Shown: one piece after another, positions 31,128 through 45,906 of the stretch
Layout: each line of letters opens with the position of its first letter
Position numbering within the stretch: position 1 is the first letter of the stretch
Source of the DNA: a virus
Direction: 5' to 3' (one strand)
DNA length: 64,000 nt
Virus record (IMG/VR): IMGVR_UViG_3300021420_000017
Span: 1 to 64,000 of that record
Notes under the pieces: generated by a model
What the model was told of the DNA's origin: nothing
Seen by the model: the letters and a program-made list of their open reading frames with translations, nothing else
Databases searched by the model: none
Program-made: the position numbers and the translations under genes

Positions 31128-31425
31128 GGTAGACCTGTACACCATTTTCCTGGGTGGTATACATATCGCTTGCTACGAGTGTGACGTGGTCAGTCATGAG
31201 ATCGAGATCGGGATATTCATCGACGATTCTGAATCAGAGATGGAGTCGATCGGGGTTATCAAGTTCGATAGCTGTCAGCACTTGTATATGTGTGGTTGTC
31301 TCACAGATATTATTGCTCTTGCGATCGAGCACCATCAGCAAGGCGTTCTCAGCATCCATGACATCTGCAAGCTGGATGGCTGCACATGCCCCGCCGACGA
31401 TGAAGATGCGTCTGATCCGTCATGA
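31108..31425 (+). CDS. Cys/His-rich hypothetical protein
   Basis: GGAG RBS, ATG 31108. Confidence 0.55.
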   Translation: MADTSIEVDLYTIFLGGIHIACYECDVVSHEIEIGIFIDDSESEMESIGVIKFDSCQHLYMCGCLTDIIALAIEHHQQGVLSIHDICKLDGCTCPADDEDASDPS

Positions 31426-33491
31426 CATCCATGCGGGTGCGCCCTCGCCCGAAACAGGCGGCCAGCTCTTTCGCGCTGCCCAGGATCACGAATCATCGTG
31501 AGGCGATGGGGGACCTGAGTCTGAAGGTGCCCGACCCGATCACCTTCGCCACCAGCGAGAAGTACCTCAACCGCTATCTCTACCCCCGGCAGGCGACCTT
31601 CCTCAAGGTCATCTTCCTGCGGTTGGACCTGTTCACCGCCTATGACTATCAGGTCGTCGCCGAGTGGGAAGAGTCCTTCAAGGACACCCAGAGCAACGGC
31701 ATCACGCCCGGGGTCATCGATCGGATGATCTATCTGAAGGCGAATGGCCACAAGTGGTTCCGTGAGGTGCTGCTGGTGCTCGGCCGCCGCGCCGGTAAGG
31801 GCTACGTGTGCGCCATCGCGATGGCATACGTGCTGTGGAACTACATGGCCAAGGGCGACCCGCAGAAGGCCTACGGCATCGACCGCGATAAGCAGCTCAC
31901 CTGCCTGATATATGCGGGCAAGAAGGAGCAGGCCAAGGCTAACCTGTACAAAGATCTCTACAACGTCATTATCGGCGCCGAGTGCTTCACGCCCTACATC
32001 CCCGGCCGTCCGCTGGGCGACTCGATCTCCATCAACGCTCCGGTCGATGCAGAGAAGATGCGCAAGCTCGCCGCGCGGGGGATCCGACCCAACCTCGACC
32101 TGGCCACGTTCAAGATCGAGCCCCGTGAGGCCACGGCCATGTCAGCTCGTGGTGGGGCTGGTTTCATGTTGGGCTTCGATGAGTTCGCTCACGTCAACAA
32201 GTCGGTGTCGGCCAGCGATGCGGATGCGATCTATGGCTCGGCCAAGCCTTCGCTCGACCAGTTCAAGAAGGACGCCTTCATCGTTGAGCCCAGCTCGCCC
32301 TGGGAGATGATCGGTCAGTTCTACATCAACTGGCAGCACGCGCAGGAGATCGACCCGGAGACGGGTCTGCCGACCTACCCCGAGATGTTGCTCCTCCAGC
32401 TCGCCAGTTGGGAGATCTACTACGACTGGGACACCGCCGACGAGCTGCCCTTGTTCCCGGAGGAGTTCCTTGGCGACCTGGGTGAGTACGAGACCATCGA
32501 CCCGCCTTCGCTCTACACCCAGCGCAATGACGATGGGGAGCCCATCCCGCCTCCGCAGGAGTATGACGAGGCGATGAAACGGGAAGAAAAGGGTAATCCT
32601 GATACTTTCGCCGTGGAACGTCTCAGTCACTGGCAAACAACTCAAGACGCCTATTTAGACCGCGAGAAGATCGCAGAGATGTTCCAACCATTCGCCGGGC
32701 AGCCCGCTCTGCAGATGACCACCAGAGGGGCGCTGGGGACTTACTACCTCGGGCACGCCGACCCCAGCACGGTGAACGACAATTTCGGCCTCGCGGTAGG
32801 GCACACCGAGCGAGATCCGCTGACCGGCTTTCAGTGCGTCGTCTTCGATTACCTGCATCACTGGAACCCGGCCGACTGGCCTGATCACACCATCAACTAT
32901 GTCGAGATCAACAAACAGCTCTGGGATATTATTAAGGGGTTTCCGGTCGACGTCTTCACCTTCGACCAGCATCAGAGTAAGTTCTTCATCGACGAGTTGA
33001 ATATGCGAGCGCGCAAGTCTCAACTGCCGAAGACACCGCGCATCGGGCTGAACACCCAGACCGCTCCGCGCAAGCTCAAGGTCGCAGAGAACTTCAAGAT
33101 TGCGTTGAATCAAGGGTGGGTAAAATCGCCCTTTTACGAACAAGCAGAACAAGAGCTACAATTTCTACAATTCAAAAATGGCAAGGTAGTACACCAGGAG
33201 CGCGGGCCGGTACAGCACGATGACGTGGCGAGCTGCATGTTCGAGGTGGTCTATGCCCTGCTGGGTAACCAGGTTAAGAGCTGGCGCGACGGGGACAACC
33301 TGATCCCCTTGACCGGAGCCGCCTCGGGCGGGATCCGGCCCTTCATGTCGCCCGGCACTGAGAACGACAACGCGATCATCAGTCAGTTCACCGAGCTGCG
33401 GAAGAGCCGGGGACAGAGCTATTCCCCTGCCCGGGGACCGCGCCCTGACTCGATGCGCCGACCGGGCCCCTCGGGCGGATTCCGCAGGTAG
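31422..33491 (+). CDS. terL: terminase large subunit
   Basis: Walker A LGRRAGKG, Walker B LGFDEFAH, RNase H-like GHADPS..ND.F, FDQHQS, HDDVA. Confidence 0.88.
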   Translation: MTSMRVRPRPKQAASSFALPRITNHREAMGDLSLKVPDPITFATSEKYLNRYLYPRQATFLKVIFLRLDLFTAYDYQVVAEWEESFKDTQSNGITPGVIDRMIYLKANGHKWFREVLLVLGRRAGKGYVCAIAMAYVLWNYMAKGDPQKAYGIDRDKQLTCLIYAGKKEQAKANLYKDLYNVIIGAECFTPYIPGRPLGDSISINAPVDAEKMRKLAARGIRPNLDLATFKIEPREATAMSARGGAGFMLGFDEFAHVNKSVSASDADAIYGSAKPSLDQFKKDAFIVEPSSPWEMIGQFYINWQHAQEIDPETGLPTYPEMLLLQLASWEIYYDWDTADELPLFPEEFLGDLGEYETIDPPSLYTQRNDDGEPIPPPQEYDEAMKREEKGNPDTFAVERLSHWQTTQDAYLDREKIAEMFQPFAGQPALQMTTRGALGTYYLGHADPSTVNDNFGLAVGHTERDPLTGFQCVVFDYLHHWNPADWPDHTINYVEINKQLWDIIKGFPVDVFTFDQHQSKFFIDELNMRARKSQLPKTPRIGLNTQTAPRKLKVAENFKIALNQGWVKSPFYEQAEQELQFLQFKNGKVVHQERGPVQHDDVASCMFEVVYALLGNQVKSWRDGDNLIPLTGAASGGIRPFMSPGTENDNAIISQFTELRKSRGQSYSPARGPRPDSMRRPGPSGGFRR

Positions 33492-33744: not shown

Positions 33745-33756
33745 TATTCCTGTCGC

Positions 33757-33791: not shown

Positions 33792-34262
33792 ATGGATGAC
33801 AACGAAGACATCGACTATGCCGTTGAGCTGCGCCGCCTCGGGGCCAAAGACCCACTGCGCCCGATGCGGGCTCGATGGTTTCTCGATGCAGACGGTTCGA
33901 ATCGTGCGCCCGTCCTGAACATCTACCCGCCCGATGGTGGGTCGATTGTGCGCACTCTGGGAGTCGGGGTGAACTTTCTTGGCCTGTGGAAGGAGCCGCA
34001 GGTCAACTACTATTTTGACAGCAACGAGATCGGCAAGACGTGGGAGCAGATCGCGGCGCATGCCTATGGCCAGGTGCTGCGCCAGCGAGCACTGGCCGAA
34101 CGACTAGGCCGGGTCGGAATCAGGCGCGAGCCCGAGCCCTACATCCTGGATGGCACTGAGCCCAACTCGGTCAAGCGCAGCATGGTGCTGAACTTCGATG
34201 AGCTGGATATGCTCTTGGACCTGGCCAAGGTGCCGCAGAGCGATCTCGACCTCTTGAAGTAG
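33792..34262 (+). CDS. hypothetical protein
   Basis: Codon bias, own promoter. Confidence 0.7.
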   Translation: MDDNEDIDYAVELRRLGAKDPLRPMRARWFLDADGSNRAPVLNIYPPDGGSIVRTLGVGVNFLGLWKEPQVNYYFDSNEIGKTWEQIAAHAYGQVLRQRALAERLGRVGIRREPEPYILDGTEPNSVKRSMVLNFDELDMLLDLAKVPQSDLDLLK

Positions 34263-34372
34263 TGAGAGGTCTTCCCGCGCCGGGCCGACCCCAGGACCCG
34301 ACCGCAGCGCGACCTGATCAGAGGCACCCGGCGCGGGAGCCCGTTCTGTCTAGTCCGCCCGGGAGGGATCTA

Positions 34373-37300
34373 GTGGTAAGAATCGAGCCTGCTCCGTCTC
34401 CTCAGCGAGTCCCGGGTGAGAGCACTGAGCACTTCCTCATGCGGCAAGCCAACTGGAAGCTGGATCGGGATTCCTTCCGGCGCCTGGCTGGATGGGAGGA
34501 CGAGAATGACGCTGACGACGGCCGGATGCAGCACAGACCGGCCGACCGGGATGGCACGCCGATCCACGATATGACCCATAACTTTCCATCCGATATCTAC
34601 ACACATCCGCACTACTACTCAGACATGACTGAGCCTTCCAATCAGAAGGCCCATGACGTCATTAATCGGGTGCGCGGCAATCCTGAGGCCAACGTGCACA
34701 TCTACCGGTCACTGCCCGCCGAGCATGCCCACCAGGGGTTCCGGCCAGGCGACTGGGTCTCGACCTCCAAGGACTATGCCAGGCAGCACGGCACCCACGC
34801 CAGCGACCCAAAACACGACTGGCCGGTCATCCACACCGTGGTCAAGGCCAAGGATCTGCACACCGACGGCGACGACTTCCGCGAGTTTGGCTACAACGGC
34901 GATGAGCGCAAGCCGGGCAACGTTGCCTTCAAGGGCGGCTACCACCAGGAGGTGCGTGATCATCCCGATGGTGGTGTGGTGCCGGTAGTGCATCGGGGTC
35001 CGACCCCGACGAAGGGATACACCTTCCGTAACAGCCAGCAGTCCTGGGATGGCAGCGCTGGCAGCGCTGGTCACATCACGGCCTATGCTCCCGATGAGTC
35101 CTACGCCGGGCATGCTACCTACTGGCACGGTAAGCCCGACGAGACGCACATCGACCCTGACCACCAGCATTTGGCCGATGAGCTGACCGAGCGCATGCAC
35201 AGGATGATCCCGAAGTTCCGGGAGGCATCTTTGCAGGTAGAGGCTGTCCCGGCTCCACAGAGAGCGCCTGGGGAGAGTATCGAGCACCTGCGCGCCAGGC
35301 ATGCCAACTGGCGGCTCGACCAGTGGGCGCTCCAGATGCTGGCTGGAGCGGACAAGATCGAGCACCCCTACCTGCAGGTGCTGGATCACGAACTGGAAGA
35401 TCTGGATGACGAGGGACTGTCAGCGCAGGCCGTCCAGGTGCCGCCAGCGGGCCTGAGTTTCACCCACGACGACATGGAGACTGGCGGCTCTAAGCATCCG
35501 ATCAGAACCCATCTGCGGGCGCATACGCCGGAGGACGGTCAGGTCGGCGCGCTCATCTATTACCCACCCAGGCGCCGCAATGGCGTGGTGACGATCCACA
35601 ACTTGCATGTTGAGCCAGATCAGCGGCGCCGGGGGATCGGTAGCGCGCTGATGGATGAGGTTCAGCGTCGCCACCCGGATTCGACCCTAGATCATGGAGA
35701 TAGGACCGCAAACGGGGAGGATTGGTGGGAAGGCTATACAGACGGCAAGACGGTGCGTCGGGGTCGCACGGCTTTGCTGGAGAGGGTCGAGAAGTTGGGT
35801 CCGATCATTCCGGTCGCGGGTGTTTTGGAAGGGTCAAGCACCCCCTACGACGCGACGTATCAGACCCCCGACGATCTGCATTATCTCCATCGAGATCCCC
35901 AAGGCGTGTACTCGCGCACGAAGGCTGGCCGATTGAGTGGATTTCTGAACTGGAACAGCCAGGGCGAGGTCGGATCCGTTCAGGTCCACCCGGATTACCG
36001 TCGACATGGGCTTGCGAGCGCTCTCTGGGAGCACGCCAAGATGGCCGAACCTAACTTGCACCACTCGACCACTTTGTCCAATGACGGTGCGGCCTGGGCC
36101 GAGAAGACTGCCGGGGCCGAAGGCGCTAATTACGCTAATATTCGTTTTCAGAAGGAGGATGGAGATTCTCATAACGAGTACTCTTTGTTTGCGGTGCATC
36201 CAGATCATGGGGATGTAGGGTATTTAAGGTACAGCGATGGAGGGGATCCTGCCGCTCAGGTTCAGGTTCACATGATGAGGGTGCGTCCTCAGCACCGACG
36301 CAGGGGCGTCGGTAGTGCGTTGATGGATGAGTTGCAGCGGCGATATCCCGGCGCTTCGATTGATCACGGTGACAGGACCGCCAACGGGGATGACTGGTGG
36401 GCTGGCTACTCCGACGGTAAGACGGTGCGCCGAGGTCGGACGGCTGCCGTGTCTCAGACCCACTGGCACGTCAGTGACAGTCGCAATCGGGACTCGATCG
36501 CCGAGCATGGGTTGGATCTTGCGCACAGCTCCGACGGTCAGCACATTTGGCTGCACGGAGATGAGGACGAGGCCCGCCAGTACCAGCAGATGGGCGCGAC
36601 TCGCGACATGCACGGCACTCCTGTGACCAAGGATCTCTACCGCGTCGACACCACCGGCTACCGGACTTCCAAGGAGCCGCACGGGGTCGCCGATATCGGC
36701 CAGAGGGTGGTCAAGCGATCCATCCCGCCCGAGCGCATTGAGCGCATCGAGTCGTCACTTGTTACTCGATCCCTTCTAGTGGAGAATGTTGTCTATGAGC
36801 ACCCACGGATCGATCCAGAAGTACTCCGCCGAGGATCTGGAGTCGGCTCGGTTGAACGGCATGTCGCCCGAGGAGCACGCGAAGATCCTCGACCGGATCA
36901 GCTACTTCGACACGCCGCATCCGGAGAGTGTGTGTCCTCCGCACATTTCTTCCCGGGAATGGCACGCGATGCAGCGGGCAGCCAGCAAGGCGCCACAGAG
37001 CCTCTGAGTTACGATCCACATCCGCAGATTGCCAGTGATCTTCGATTGCTGCCGGATCGGGTGCAGGATGCATTTCACGACCGCGTGGACGGGCTGCGTA
37101 GCGGCGAGCGGCATCCGTCAACTCATCCGCTTAAGGGCAAGCTTCAGGGCGGTTGGCATGGGACGTCGATCGGCGGGAATCAGTATCGGATGATCCATAG
37201 GGTGCGCGACGGGGTGTTGCAGGTGTCGGCCGCCGGTGCTCATGACGACGCTTACAACAACGCGATCAAGCGGCAGAAGGGTACTAACTCCTACTTCGGT

Positions 37301-40159
37301 AGTTGGATCGCCAGTGTCAATAGTCGATGGCGCGAGGGTCAGCGAAAGCGATGCCCCTGTGGGTTGATGGCCGAGTTCGATCCGCTTGATGGCTGGCAAC
37401 ACTTGGATGGGTCGATCAGCCACGAGGACGGTGGCGAGTCCGTCTCGCAGAGGATGTCTTGTACTGCCTGCTCCGGCACTGGCGAGCAGGGAACTGGGCA
37501 TGAGTGCTATCAATGTGATGGCACGGGGCTGCGCGAATATCAGAACCCATCAGTCGACAATGCCAATTCAGAAAATGAGCTGCTGGTGGGACGCGACGAT
37601 GGCAACGGCATCAAGCCCGTACTTGCAGCTCGATTTACTCCGGACCAAAGGGTGTTCACCCATACAGATGGCCTAGACCATCGCCTGTTCGACCAGGATG
37701 GACATCTTCGCCCCGAGGTGCGCAGCTACATCATGGGCTCGATCGAGCAGTTCTGGCGAGGTCGCTATCGTGACTGGGCGCACTGGGCGAAGGTCTACTT
37801 TGCTGGCTCAGAGGCTTCCATGTGGACGTCTCCGACACTAGAGGGCAACTCAGATTTCGATGTCCTCGTCGGCGTGGAGTATGACCGGTTCCGTGCGGCT
37901 AATCCGCAGTACGCCGATCTGAGCGACGCCGAGATCTCGGCTCAGATGAACCACGAGTTCGGGGCCGGGCTGAATAACTCCGAGACCTACATCACGGTCG
38001 ACGGAGTGTCTACGGGACCCTGGTCGCGCACGACCTACGTGAACGAAGATTCGTACGATATTAAGCGCATTAAGCCATATGCAGCCTATGATGTCGGCAA
38101 TGACCGCTGGGTCGTCAAGCCACCGGACCTGCCGCACTGGTCAGTCGATGACCTCCCCAAGCCCGTGGTGGCTGAGCTGCGTGCGGTTGAGGCCTACGCG
38201 AAGGCCGTGCTGAAGCTCCCCGAGCCAATGCGTACTCAGCAGGGTGCAGCGCTGTTCGAGCACCTGCACTCTGATCGGTCACGAGCCTTTAGCGATAGAG
38301 GAGAGGGCTGGATCGACCCCGGGAATCTCGCCGAGAAGTGGCTGGATATGGGTGGCTGGTGGGCTGAGCTGGTCGACTGTGCCCACCGAGCCAAGGAAGG
38401 GCTCGACCTCGCTCCCGCTGACTGGTCGAACACGCCGCCCGGCTATACCGCATCTGCTAGCAGTTTGCAGATCACTCATAAGTCTGAGACAAATCCTGAT
38501 GCCGATCCTGATGATGAATATGATAAAGATTGGGTGTTGCATACCATCGTTGGTCATGTGAATGGTCAACAAGTGGGGAAGTTAGAAGTTGATAAGCATC
38601 CTTCCGAGGCGCGAGGCGTCGTATCAGACATAGCTATTCATCCGGATCATCGACGCAAGGGATACGCCACTGCGCTATTGCAACATGCTCGCGAACATCT
38701 GGGTTTCCCGATCGATCATTCAGAGCGACTTACCGATGACGGTAAAGCCTGGTCGGATAAGGTCGGCCATATGGTTAAGTTGCCCAAGACCGAGACCTGT
38801 AAGTACTGCGATCAGCCCGCAACCGGGCGCGTGATCTGGGCAGAGGGTATGGCGTACATCCCAGTTTGTGACGAACATGAGCGGCGTGCGATCGACCATG
38901 TCGGCGACGACTATTGCAACACTCGGCCGATCCCGAAGACTGCGGTGCATCATCAGGCGATGCCATGGCATGAGCAGCGCGGGGGTGAGTCGGCCGAGGA
39001 GGTCGGAGCCAAGTCGGTGCGTCATGCGGGTTTCAAGGGATTTGTTGGGCCGAGTTATGACGATGAAAGCTACGGCGAGACTCACCATGATGGCGAGTTC
39101 GATGAGGATGCTTGGGATCGAGCTGCACCAGAGCCGACTTCGGCAGAGCATGCTCATTATGAACAGCATGACGAGTATCCAGATACTTATCACGAACGTC
39201 ATGAGCAGGCATATGGCCATGAGATCGACAAGAAGCGCCAGGAGGATGTGCCCGATCACGAGGACGACCACTTGCACCACTTCATCAGCGAGCACGGGGC
39301 TGAAGCCCCCGTGTGGACTAAGCACAGCAAGCAGCCAGTCCGAGTTGATCTGACCAAGGGTGTCTATGCGACCCAGAGCCATGTCGGGCAGAAACATATC
39401 GATCGATATTTGGCTGACCCGCATGATCAGGCCTGGCATTTGCAGTCGCATCCTGGCGCAGATAGTGATGGATACCTTGGTAACGGGCACCCGATGTTCG
39501 TCACCCATGAGGGGCGACTTCATGTCACAGAGGGGCATCACCGGGTCGCGGCTGCTCTCCAGCGAGGCGATTCTTCGATCGAGGGCTGGCATCACGATCT
39601 GGACAAGCACCCGATCGCGGAGAACTACCACACCCACGAGCCATGCGAGGACTGTCAGTATCACGCCAGCGGAGACGAGGAGAAGCGCCATTTTGCCTGG
39701 CGTCACATGGGGCTCAGGCGAGACGATCTTTACGGCACGGGCGACGTAGATAAGCTCTTCCACGGCAGCCCGACCACTTCGGCGCCCTTCACCCCTGCTG
39801 GCCGCTCCAAGCGCTATCACGACTATGACAAGGATCTGGTCGCGCAGGCGATCTCACACCCGGAGGATCACCACATGCAGGATGTGGATCCGCGCGAACT
39901 GCGTAGTACCCAGCCCAGCGTGATCCGGGCTGGAGTAAGCCATTACCTCACTGATAAGTACGACAAGACCGGGGAGACGTATGCAGACATGCACCATCCC
40001 GGCAATCGGCGGCCGATCGTCTATCACCGTGAGGCAGATGACAACAAGATCCTTCTGAGTGGACACCACCGTGCCGCTGCTGCTCTACTACAGGGTAAAC
40101 CACTTCAAGCGATCGTCGTGCGAGGCGGTTACGGAGAGCCGAGAGGAGGCACCTCATGA
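34373..40159 (+). CDS. large polyvalent protein: ART-like, GNAT x4-5, Tpt1/KptA-like ART, RelE-like, Zn fingers, nucleotidyltransferase, ParB-like x2
   Basis: IYRS..WVSTS..EFGY; V.P..RRRG.GSAL GNAT motif A repeated; H.S...N..SI..HGL; HPLKG..YRMIH..GAH; CTACSGTG..CYQCDGTG; AGS..DFDV; GHHR twice. GGAGG RBS favours GTG 34373 over 34262. Confidence 0.8.
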   Translation: MVRIEPAPSPQRVPGESTEHFLMRQANWKLDRDSFRRLAGWEDENDADDGRMQHRPADRDGTPIHDMTHNFPSDIYTHPHYYSDMTEPSNQKAHDVINRVRGNPEANVHIYRSLPAEHAHQGFRPGDWVSTSKDYARQHGTHASDPKHDWPVIHTVVKAKDLHTDGDDFREFGYNGDERKPGNVAFKGGYHQEVRDHPDGGVVPVVHRGPTPTKGYTFRNSQQSWDGSAGSAGHITAYAPDESYAGHATYWHGKPDETHIDPDHQHLADELTERMHRMIPKFREASLQVEAVPAPQRAPGESIEHLRARHANWRLDQWALQMLAGADKIEHPYLQVLDHELEDLDDEGLSAQAVQVPPAGLSFTHDDMETGGSKHPIRTHLRAHTPEDGQVGALIYYPPRRRNGVVTIHNLHVEPDQRRRGIGSALMDEVQRRHPDSTLDHGDRTANGEDWWEGYTDGKTVRRGRTALLERVEKLGPIIPVAGVLEGSSTPYDATYQTPDDLHYLHRDPQGVYSRTKAGRLSGFLNWNSQGEVGSVQVHPDYRRHGLASALWEHAKMAEPNLHHSTTLSNDGAAWAEKTAGAEGANYANIRFQKEDGDSHNEYSLFAVHPDHGDVGYLRYSDGGDPAAQVQVHMMRVRPQHRRRGVGSALMDELQRRYPGASIDHGDRTANGDDWWAGYSDGKTVRRGRTAAVSQTHWHVSDSRNRDSIAEHGLDLAHSSDGQHIWLHGDEDEARQYQQMGATRDMHGTPVTKDLYRVDTTGYRTSKEPHGVADIGQRVVKRSIPPERIERIESSLVTRSLLVENVVYEHPRIDPEVLRRGSGVGSVERHVARGAREDPRPDQLLRHAASGECVSSAHFFPGMARDAAGSQQGATEPLSYDPHPQIASDLRLLPDRVQDAFHDRVDGLRSGERHPSTHPLKGKLQGGWHGTSIGGNQYRMIHRVRDGVLQVSAAGAHDDAYNNAIKRQKGTNSYFGSWIASVNSRWREGQRKRCPCGLMAEFDPLDGWQHLDGSISHEDGGESVSQRMSCTACSGTGEQGTGHECYQCDGTGLREYQNPSVDNANSENELLVGRDDGNGIKPVLAARFTPDQRVFTHTDGLDHRLFDQDGHLRPEVRSYIMGSIEQFWRGRYRDWAHWAKVYFAGSEASMWTSPTLEGNSDFDVLVGVEYDRFRAANPQYADLSDAEISAQMNHEFGAGLNNSETYITVDGVSTGPWSRTTYVNEDSYDIKRIKPYAAYDVGNDRWVVKPPDLPHWSVDDLPKPVVAELRAVEAYAKAVLKLPEPMRTQQGAALFEHLHSDRSRAFSDRGEGWIDPGNLAEKWLDMGGWWAELVDCAHRAKEGLDLAPADWSNTPPGYTASASSLQITHKSETNPDADPDDEYDKDWVLHTIVGHVNGQQVGKLEVDKHPSEARGVVSDIAIHPDHRRKGYATALLQHAREHLGFPIDHSERLTDDGKAWSDKVGHMVKLPKTETCKYCDQPATGRVIWAEGMAYIPVCDEHERRAIDHVGDDYCNTRPIPKTAVHHQAMPWHEQRGGESAEEVGAKSVRHAGFKGFVGPSYDDESYGETHHDGEFDEDAWDRAAPEPTSAEHAHYEQHDEYPDTYHERHEQAYGHEIDKKRQEDVPDHEDDHLHHFISEHGAEAPVWTKHSKQPVRVDLTKGVYATQSHVGQKHIDRYLADPHDQAWHLQSHPGADSDGYLGNGHPMFVTHEGRLHVTEGHHRVAAALQRGDSSIEGWHHDLDKHPIAENYHTHEPCEDCQYHASGDEEKRHFAWRHMGLRRDDLYGTGDVDKLFHGSPTTSAPFTPAGRSKRYHDYDKDLVAQAISHPEDHHMQDVDPRELRSTQPSVIRAGVSHYLTDKYDKTGETYADMHHPGNRRPIVYHREADDNKILLSGHHRAAAALLQGKPLQAIVVRGGYGEPRGGTS
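36795..37007 (+). CDS. nested 70-aa ORF in another frame inside the polyvalent gene
   Basis: High GC3 codons in this frame, GGAG RBS at 36781, promoter motif CTTGTTACTCGATC at 36758. Confidence 0.5.
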   Translation: MSTHGSIQKYSAEDLESARLNGMSPEEHAKILDRISYFDTPHPESVCPPHISSREWHAMQRAASKAPQSL

Positions 40160-45031: not shown

Positions 45032-45279
45032 CAGTAGTGCATCGGTCCGGAGCATAGCCACGCAGCCATACCATGCTCGCAGGTGGCCTCGGTCATGGCC
45101 ATGAGTTCGGCCAGATCGGCAGTGCCTATGCCTGGGCAGCGGTAGTAGTTGGTGTTGAGTGCCCGGTAGATGTGGGGGTCGTGGGCCTCGTAGGTATCGC
45201 AGAAGGCGTCCGGCCGGGGCTGGTCCATCTCTGGGATGAAGGTGTCGTAGTCCTCTTCGTACTCGGCGATCTCGCTCAT
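45031..45279 (-). CDS. small Cys/His protein
   Basis: Own promoter and RBS; CEHG..LC.GP.HY. Confidence 0.7.
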   Translation of the reverse strand: MSEIAEYEEDYDTFIPEMDQPRPDAFCDTYEAHDPHIYRALNTNYYRCPGIGTADLAELMAMTEATCEHGMAAWLCSGPMHY

Positions 45280-45311
45280 GATGGCTCCTATTCGTTTGGC
45301 GACTGAGGACA

Positions 45312-45339
45312 ACTCTACCGGACGGTGATCGAGTAACAA
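45312..45339 (-). promoter_or_regulatory. early-type promoter (leftward of a divergent pair)
   Basis: TTGTTA-CTC-N13-TAGAGT, CTCAGTCGCCAA, AGGAGCCATCATG. Confidence 0.8.
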
Positions 45340-45378
45340 GTGTGCTCTGTGATGATCGACAGTGAGCGAGTCGTTCGC

Positions 45379-45406
45379 TTGTTACTCGATCATGGTTGGG
45401 TAATGT
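45379..45406 (+). promoter_or_regulatory. early-type promoter (rightward of a divergent pair)
   Basis: TTGTTA-CTC-N13-TAATGT, GTAGCCAA variant. Confidence 0.75.
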
Positions 45407-45440
45407 ATGACCTGTAGCCAAACACGCAGGGAGTCACCTC

Positions 45441-45906
45441 ATGGACAGCACTGAGATTGACAAGACAGCAGACGGAGTAGAGATCCAACCGGGACTGGTC
45501 GTGTGGACCAATGATTATGTCCAGGCTCGCGTGGTTGGTCCACAGACCTACCGCAACCCGAATGAGCGCCAGTGGTACGACATGGAGACCTTAGATGGCA
45601 AGCATTCGGCCATGATGGATGGTCCTCGCATGAGCGTACGCAAGCCTTTCTAGTTACTGCGATCACATTGGAGTCTTGATGAGTCAACTGAAAGTATCGC
45701 CTAGCACTCGCATCGGGATGAAACGGGGATCGCAGATCGCGTTCCCCGCTCTGCACGTAGTCACCGGCATTCGTGACTGGCACTCAGGGATACTTGGCAG
45801 GTCCGAGTGCGGGCTCCTCTGCAACGTGCTCGAAGCCGTCGCCGACGACAGCAAGGTGCAACTGTGCGAGAGATGCCGCCGTTCGCTCGGTTGGGATCGT
45901 GCTTGA
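45441..45906 (+). other. two small hypothetical genes, 45441-45653 and 45676-45906
   Basis: RBS-like sites; the second has H..CG..C..C..C. Confidence 0.55.

Follow-up and report, generated by a model that had tools for sequence, protein, structure and literature searches.

We identified a small gene that is nested out of frame within a giant gene of a soil phage. The window, by which we mean the whole stretch of DNA that was analyzed, comprises 64,000 nucleotides (nt) and represents the first 64 kb of the IMG/VR virus record IMGVR_UViG_3300021420_000017 (146,650 bp, 94% complete, approximately 60% GC). It contains a gene for a polyvalent multi-domain protein, and within this gene, in the +1 frame and directly before a domain with the fold of the RelE, YafQ, and YoeB toxins, lies an open reading frame (ORF) of 70 codons (Table 1). 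As judged by sequence comparison, this nested ORF is a real and separately initiated small gene, and approximately 210 bases are dual-coding in the sense that the nested frame carries the amino-acid constraint while the main frame provides a linker that is kept open. The overall reading that we favor, and hold to be fairly probable, is that of a real, separately initiated, dual-coding gene whose product is an antitoxin-like inhibitor of the RelE/YafQ-fold RNase domain in the same polyprotein; we infer an antidote role for the small protein.

Table 1. Coordinates of the nested gene, its signals, and the surrounding parts of the polyvalent gene in the window
Feature	Position	Strand	Description
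Polyvalent multi-domain protein gene	34262..40159	+	1965 codons as open frame; four GNAT domains, conserved domain 36446-36760, RelE-like domain, further domains
Conserved main-frame domain upstream of the module	36446..36776	+	59% identity to L003; no Pfam match; putative Tpt1/KptA-like ART in the original prediction
14-mer CTTGTTACTCGATC	36758..36771	+	-35-like TTGTTA at 36759-36764
TAG in the +1 frame	36777..36779	+	Closes the frame directly before the nested start signals
Main-frame reading of the nested segment	36780..37003	+	R/A/G/V/P/S-rich linker; protein not conserved, yet stop-free
GGAGA Shine-Dalgarno sequence and -10-like GAGAAT	36781..36787	+	GGAGA at 36781-36785, 10 nt before ATG 36795; GAGAAT at 36782-36787
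Nested +1-frame gene	36795..37007	+	70 codons and TGA; by sequence, a divergent member of a small-protein family kept before the RelE-like domain in all relatives
RelE/YafQ/YoeB-fold domain of the polyprotein	37004..37288	+	Main frame; CTG at 37004, no own start codon

Open from 36780 to 37004, the +1 frame offers two ATGs, at 36786 and 36795, of which the latter is the likely start because it lies 10 nt from GGAG. At the other end, the nested TGA (37005-37007) falls within CTG-AGT-TAC, the first main-frame codons of the RelE-like domain. The original prediction had reported this ORF, its GGAG ribosome-binding site, a second copy of the upstream motif at 45378, and the overlapping stop, all of which were recovered where it had placed them. 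It had also described the long-frame translation of the segment as filler and noted a bias in GC content at third codon positions (GC3) in the other frame. This impression is borne out by a frame-specific codon model, for which 24 further long genes from the same genome served as the training set. The model prefers the main frame across the 5.9-kb ORF with one clear exception at 36821-36941, where the +1 frame is ahead by 8-18 log units and GC3 is 0.78-0.82 in the +1 frame versus 0.42-0.50 in the main frame. The main frame is also outscored at 34301, in a 5' end that is probably non-coding, and marginally at 38681 (1.3 units).

Openness by itself is weak evidence for a gene, because off-frame segments of 75 codons are open approximately 10%-14% of the time in this genome. 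The caution raised with the original prediction, that GC3 bias makes an open overlapping frame likely by chance, was therefore fair as far as openness is concerned; chance as the explanation of this particular frame is contradicted by the comparative data, which settle the point. The flip in the codon model is confined to this spot, and the peptide family, the start signals, and the selection pattern are conserved in relatives, such that we assign a negligible probability to an open frame created by GC3 bias alone. Two other long +1 ORFs of the polyvalent gene, at 38868-39353 (161 codons) and 39360-39749 (129 codons), yield junk translations rich in M, S, T, and R and exhibit no frame flip, and they were rejected as genes. 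Both lie where the polyvalent gene encodes an acidic, His-rich stretch, and they probably result from its composition.

Relatives were collected in three ways. The flanks of the nested segment, read in the main frame, retrieved one relative (P0010, locus L003), and a two-sequence profile of the downstream domain retrieved eight more polyvalent proteins of 775-1974 aa, for seven of which the DNA was used (L004-L011), with P0013 left out. Scans of IMG/VR with a nine-sequence profile added one further locus, L012. The comparison set thus consists of the window and ten loci (L003-L012), which are eleven assemblies from different samples and represent eight lineages, seven of them besides the window. 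All ten other loci carry a +1-frame ORF of 45-55 codons with its own Shine-Dalgarno (SD) sequence and ATG directly before the RelE-like domain, and the SD lies 5-12 nt upstream of every nested ATG. The distance from the nested stop to the His-Pro motif of the domain is 8 nt in nine of these ten loci, 17 nt in L007, and 14 nt in the window. One stop codon immediately precedes the SD and ATG and another lies at the domain boundary, so that the +1 frame is closed at both ends in every locus. The encoded peptides share the motif His-Pro-Thr-Trp..Ala-Glu..Arg......Trp..Val.....Ser-Lys.Ala-His, and the window peptide has about 20 extra N-terminal residues relative to the family. Conservation of the nested ORF, which had been proposed as a check on its reality, is thus observed together with its start signals and, as described below, with purifying selection.

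The context upstream of this pair of elements varies: the window and L003 have the same conserved domain, L008 and the L009 group have other domains, and L004, L005, and L007 have nothing at all. This variation argues, at the level of sequence, that the small gene and the RelE-like domain travel as one module through different polyvalent architectures. In L004 (1001-1010), L005 (1001-1022), and L007 (1001-1010), the module is N-terminal in the gene, and the main ATG stands only 7-19 nt before the nested ATG; the SD in these loci stands at a good distance from the nested ATG, whereas its spacing to the main ATG (0-1 nt) is poor. It is possible that this ATG pair constitutes a choice of start codon that sets the ratio of the two products. 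The start of the RelE-like domain lacks ATG, GTG, and TTG in all loci except L006, so that seven of the eight lineages have no start codon of their own at the domain; L006 was split by the gene caller into two genes that overlap in TGATG. The original prediction had likened the layout to that of an antitoxin gene preceding its toxin, which agrees with a stop that abuts the toxin domain as in coupled pairs and with the split in L006. It had further likened the junction to a decayed ATGA coupling. This remains one possible history only, as a start codon at the boundary is missing from most relatives too and the open state of the main frame is actively maintained.

A coding signal that leaves the main frame and later returns to it could also arise if the segment were part of the polyprotein through two programmed ribosomal frameshifts, or if paired sequencing or assembly indels had displaced the frame. 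Both variants are very improbable. The alternative frame is closed by stops before the SD and ATG and at the domain boundary in all loci, the module is N-terminal in L004, L005, and L007 with nothing upstream to shift from, and no slippery heptamer was seen by eye at either end of the segment in the window or in L003. In addition, the avoidance of stops in the main frame would be unexpected if that frame were unread. Frameshift errors in the reads had been named as a possible flaw of the original prediction. The full window is present in the DNA run of a soil metagenome, and an independent Logan contig from the probable source sample (depth 17) is identical to the window with zero indels; the eleven independent assemblies also agree on the frame layout. 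For practical purposes, the artifact and frameshift readings are excluded.

The constraint on the two frames was compared by the ratio of non-synonymous to synonymous differences (pN/pS). Between L004 and L005, the differences in the nested region are distributed over the nested-frame codon positions as 7/6/18, and pN/pS is 0.31 in the nested frame versus 1.11 in the main frame. The corresponding values are 16/15/25 with 0.61 versus 1.89 for L004 and L007, and 16/14/24 with 0.57 versus 1.38 for L005 and L007. Across the informative (least saturated) pairs, a nested-frame pN/pS of 0.31-0.65 indicates purifying selection, and none is indicated there for the main frame. The adjacent RelE-like domain served as a control and exhibits the reverse, with 0.23-0.40 in the main frame versus 1.1-2.8 in the +1 frame in eight of nine pairs; the pair L008-L009, which is saturated, gives 0.80 versus 0.99. 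Because the ratios reverse in the neighboring domain, the amino-acid constraint changes frame exactly over the nested gene.

The main frame of the segment is not free to vary either. When the nested protein was held fixed and synonymous codons were resampled from the usage of each locus, the probability of an open main frame was 0.047 for the window, 0.006, 0.015, 0.005, 0.072, and 0.012 for other lineages, and approximately 0.5-0.6 in the two GC-richest lineages. More specifically, a T-ending codon never precedes a stop-prone codon (one starting with AA, AG, or GA) in the nested gene (0/119, with about 22 expected), compared with 34/282 elsewhere (Fisher p = 5e-6). Taken together, the avoidance of stops in the main frame and the constraint on the nested frame mean that both frames are kept, which is the basis for regarding the segment as truly dual-coding. 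From these sequence patterns, the nested frame appears to be the ancestral one, onto which the main-frame linker would have been overprinted.

The same data bear on the idea that a captured toxin-antitoxin pair was fused into the polyprotein and that the former antitoxin frame is no longer translated and persists by shared ancestry. The nested gene is known here from sequence alone and its copy in the window is highly diverged, both of which would suit such a relic. However, the start codon, the SD, the position of the stop, and the peptide motif have been kept over eight lineages in which synonymous sites are near saturation, the low nested-frame ratios given above coincide with main-frame values of at least 1.1, and the alternative frame of the window retains host-like codon usage. 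We therefore regard a relic as improbable.

The downstream domain had been called RelE-like from its sequence, and modeling sustains this assignment. An AlphaFold2 model built from nine sequences (predicted local distance difference test, pLDDT, 90.7) consists of a strand, two helices, three strands, and a helix, and a Foldseek search of the PDB with this model matched YafQ (9lew_B), Mycobacterium tuberculosis RelE1 (9g12_B), HP0894, Thermus thermophilus RelE, RelBE2, HigB1, and YoeB with template modeling (TM) scores of 0.66-0.76 and a probability of 1.0. The domain is also matched by phrog_1213 "RelE-like toxin" in PHROGs (E 6e-4), while a Pfam search of the domain gave no match. By its modeled fold, the domain belongs to the RelE/ParE (BECR-fold) superfamily. 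Five residues are invariant in the domain across the nine sequences, namely Arg62, His65, Arg66, His80, and Tyr84 (domain numbering), and we take these positions to be those at which RelE, YoeB, and YafQ have catalytic residues. When the upstream domain, the linker, and the RelE-like domain were folded together from a two-row alignment, the linker had a pLDDT of 25-32 and the upstream domain was equally poor, which renders this model uninformative on disorder of the linker.

A complex model of the domain and the peptide, an approach that had been suggested alongside the original prediction, scored 0.73 versus 0.41 for the best of three controls and supports binding of the peptide to the RelE-like domain. 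Of 80 solved complexes, 58 attained the mark used, as did 2 of 110 mismatched pairs; these counts are rough since custom alignments were used. Three runs agreed in at least 89% of contacts, with a partner pLDDT of at least 78, and the modeled interface includes the conserved domain residues Arg66, His80, and Asp81.

Translation of the nested gene into a product other than an inhibitor is the alternative that we weigh most carefully, as a basic peptide that binds nucleic acid or the ribosome, as the transcriptional regulator of the module, or as a chaperone or packaging adaptor of the polyprotein. The peptides of the relatives have isoelectric points (pI) of 10-12, carry conserved Trp and His residues, and match no antitoxin family, and their strict association with the RelE-like domain would be compatible with a cofactor or a specificity factor as well. 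Against this, the complex model beats its controls and covers putative active-site residues, and the order of the genes, the abutting stop, and an own promoter make up the layout of a type II system, with the pair in L006 called as two coupled genes. On balance, a role other than inhibition seems rather unlikely to us.

Several observations nevertheless weigh against an inhibitor made from a nested gene in this phage. The strongly basic peptides of the relatives face RelE-like domains that are themselves mostly basic (pI 9.4-10), unlike the acidic classical antitoxins, and may leave room for a role directed at nucleic acid or the ribosome; the window peptide, with a pI of 6.2, is the odd member of the family. 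It also diverges most from the rest of the family (16%-33% identity), and the pN/pS values of its pairs are saturated. The peptide has no recognizable DNA-binding domain and no known family in Pfam, PHROGs, a PDB sequence search, or the ESM Atlas. The pass of the complex model could stem in part from likeness to solved RelE-antitoxin complexes. At the DNA level, the -10-like hexamer coincides with the bases of the SD, so that the two readings are inseparable here and the promoter reading leans on the -35 element and the common 14-mer. Finally, the sole RNA contig (151 nt, from a soil metatranscriptome) covers only 36326-36476 and falls short of the nested gene. This contig is identical to part of the third GNAT region and represents phage sequence in an RNA library, for which carry-over of DNA is possible.

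The original prediction had also proposed a promoter motif before the nested gene, and this proposal gains from the comparison. The 14-mer CTTGTTACTCGATC occurs in exact copies at 36758 (+), 45327-45340 (-), and 45378-45391 (+), with approximately 0.3 chance matches expected at two or fewer mismatches. The nested gene is preceded by TTGTTA, 17 nt, GAGAAT, and 7 nt before its ATG, and the geometry TTGnnn-17-[G/T]AGnnT-7-ATG recurs in L003 (TTGACA/GAGGAT), L008 (TTGTTA/GAGAAT), L006 (TTGATA/GAGACT), and L007 (TTGTAC/TAGGAT). A TTG thus stands exactly 36 nt before the nested ATG in five of the eight lineages (binomial 2e-9, a value that ignores relatedness). These sequence features point to an internal promoter that is probably present for the nested gene in about five of the eight lineages. 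A generic sigma-70 scan of 36300-37400 returned no promoter.

The two other exact copies of the 14-mer belong to a divergent promoter-like pair at 45279-45443, between two divergently oriented genes that start at approximately 45281 (minus) and 45441 (plus). In this pair, TTGTTA is followed after 16 nt by TAGAGT or TAATGT (9 nt after each 14-mer), and the leaders contain G(T/C)(A/C)GCCAAAC before an AGGAG or AGGGAG SD. A copy with two mismatches is found at 33756, upstream of the ORF 33792-34262.

The reading that we favor can be stated as a sequence of events. Ribosomes on the long message would read the main frame through the segment and produce the polyprotein including the RelE-fold domain, while other ribosomes, using the nested SD and ATG of this message and probably also of a short internal transcript, would produce the small protein. 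Such a transcript would begin at or beside the ATG and would be leaderless or near-leaderless; leaderless messages are common in Actinomycetota. As the toxin domain has no start codon, it would be made only within the polyprotein, and the inhibitor could be made without the toxin and never the reverse. The well-spaced nested SD, with the putative promoter, would provide an excess of the small protein over the polyprotein. The small protein would then bind the RelE-like domain and mask its active site while the polyprotein is made in the producing cell, and the domain would be freed after delivery or processing, once the inhibitor is lost.

We tentatively extend this scheme to a portable cassette, which is possible though a less secure proposition than inhibition itself. 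Such a cassette would comprise the RelE-fold domain and the small gene with its promoter and SD, and would be able to insert anywhere in phage polyvalent genes. Fusion would come about through reading of the -1 frame of the inhibitor gene as a linker, which would render this gene obligatorily dual-coding. The choice of start, between two close ATGs in the N-terminal type and between internal and upstream initiation in the internal type, would set the excess of the inhibitor over a toxin that is never made alone. If true, the cassette would offer phages a general way to ship a translation-cleaving toxin safely. If the peptide is an inhibitor, it would explain how the toxin domain can be synthesized in the producer cell and would extend the logic of toxin-antitoxin systems to a toxin without a gene of its own. 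The locus also provides a clean case of dual coding: each frame shows measurable selection, and it is possible to read in which direction the overprinting went. With standard gene callers, the locus comes out as one giant ORF and the small protein is overlooked, and one relative was split arbitrarily. The peptide and the domain form a pair that is small, separable, and easily tested.

With regard to the surrounding genome, we regard the product of 34262-40159, by its sequence, as fitting the definition of a polyvalent protein in Iyer et al. 2017 (PMC5512222), because it contains four GNAT domains and other conserved modules and a terminase large-subunit gene lies upstream. This terminase ORF (31422-33491, 689 aa) is located just upstream of the long ORF and matches phrog_2 (E 5e-17), while no Pfam model matched it. 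Matches to PF18760 ART-PolyVal and ParB_N in relatives are weak or faint. Over about 60 codons at the beginning of the long ORF (34262-34440), the +1 frame scores higher under the codon model, and the protein is listed in the database with 1906 aa and a start 59 codons further on; the true start is probably near 34439 and not at the GTG at 34262. Between the RelE-like domain and the next common module, approximately 100 extra residues (37290-37560) with CxxC pairs resemble a DnaJ-type zinc finger and are absent from L003. In relatives, one or more small genes separate the polyvalent gene from an upstream gene of 660-680 aa, and ribonucleotide reductase or rIIB-like genes lie downstream.

Searches for further copies of the module defined its known range. 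The nested peptide had no credible homologue among 1.84 billion representative proteins; six hits were to unrelated, highly repetitive proteins, with single matches of 25-28 bits summed over repeats, and were rejected as spurious. DNA searches of phage and plasmid collections gave no match, single- and two-sequence scans of viral contigs gave nothing, and the nine-sequence profile found nothing in a set with one genome for each bacterial species or in contigs of JGI metagenomes, although pattern-based scans of this kind can miss relatives. Stand-alone RelE-like homologues of 50-168 aa were not found by word index.

The nested gene and its domain can be compared most directly with type II toxin-antitoxin operons such as relBE, dinJ-yafQ, and yefM-yoeB (PDB 9lew, 9g12, 2a6q, and 4fxe). 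Both have a RelE fold, a small partner gene directly upstream, a partner stop that abuts or overlaps the first codons of the toxin, a promoter-like element of their own, and binding, which is modeled here. An antitoxin gene adjacent to the toxin is one mark of type II systems, and a small ORF lies directly upstream in 11/11 loci, with its stop 8-17 nt before His-Pro. Separate genes with their own starts and a DNA-binding domain in the antitoxin are others, and these are lacking here. The toxin is instead an internal or N-terminal domain of a polyvalent protein of 775-1974 aa with a boundary start codon in L006 only, and the same ORF accommodates the partner gene out of frame and stays open across it. 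The partner has no detected DNA-binding domain and no sequence relation to RelB, DinJ, YefM, or Phd, and it is basic in most members.

A short antitoxin without a DNA-binding domain has a precedent in PaaA2 of the paaR2-paaA2-parE2 system, which is encoded by a separate, non-overlapping gene. The peptides described here would resemble it as short partners (approximately 45-70 aa) that consist of a toxin-wrapping segment only, whereas their gene overlaps. Small nested genes in another frame are likewise established, as with Rz1 inside Rz of lambda and comS inside the srfA-B synthetase gene of Bacillus subtilis. These are similar in having a small +1-frame gene with its own start signals inside a larger gene, which for comS is also giant and encodes a multi-domain protein. 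However, their products have not been proposed to inhibit a domain of the host protein, and in our case the nested frame looks ancestral.

The polyvalent proteins of phages and conjugative elements described in PMC5512222 include BECR-fold RNase (PBECR) domains. The proteins compared here are similar to them in their GNAT, ART-like, NTase-like, and ParB-like modules, in a terminase-adjacent gene, and in shuffled domain orders among relatives. On the other hand, that paper gives no inhibitor or immunity gene for such RNase domains, and the domain in our loci is of the RelE/YafQ type by modeled fold. Mono-domain, multi-domain, and fused RelE/ParE toxins, including fused BECR forms, were described by Gerdes 2025 (PMC11980606). 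Neither of these papers mentions an out-of-frame nested partner, full-text literature searches returned no natural case, and we found no paper that describes a nested small gene before a RelE-fold domain in a polyvalent gene. Finally, MuF-type phage polymorphic toxins and fused toxin-antitoxin proteins (PMC11980606 for the fused BECR forms) resemble our module in that a toxin domain, borne by a phage or a defense system, and its cognate neutralizer, here a putative one, occur at one locus. Their neutralizer is provided by a downstream, non-overlapping immunity gene or by an in-frame fusion, while the candidate inhibitor described here would be a separate polypeptide encoded in an overlapping frame.

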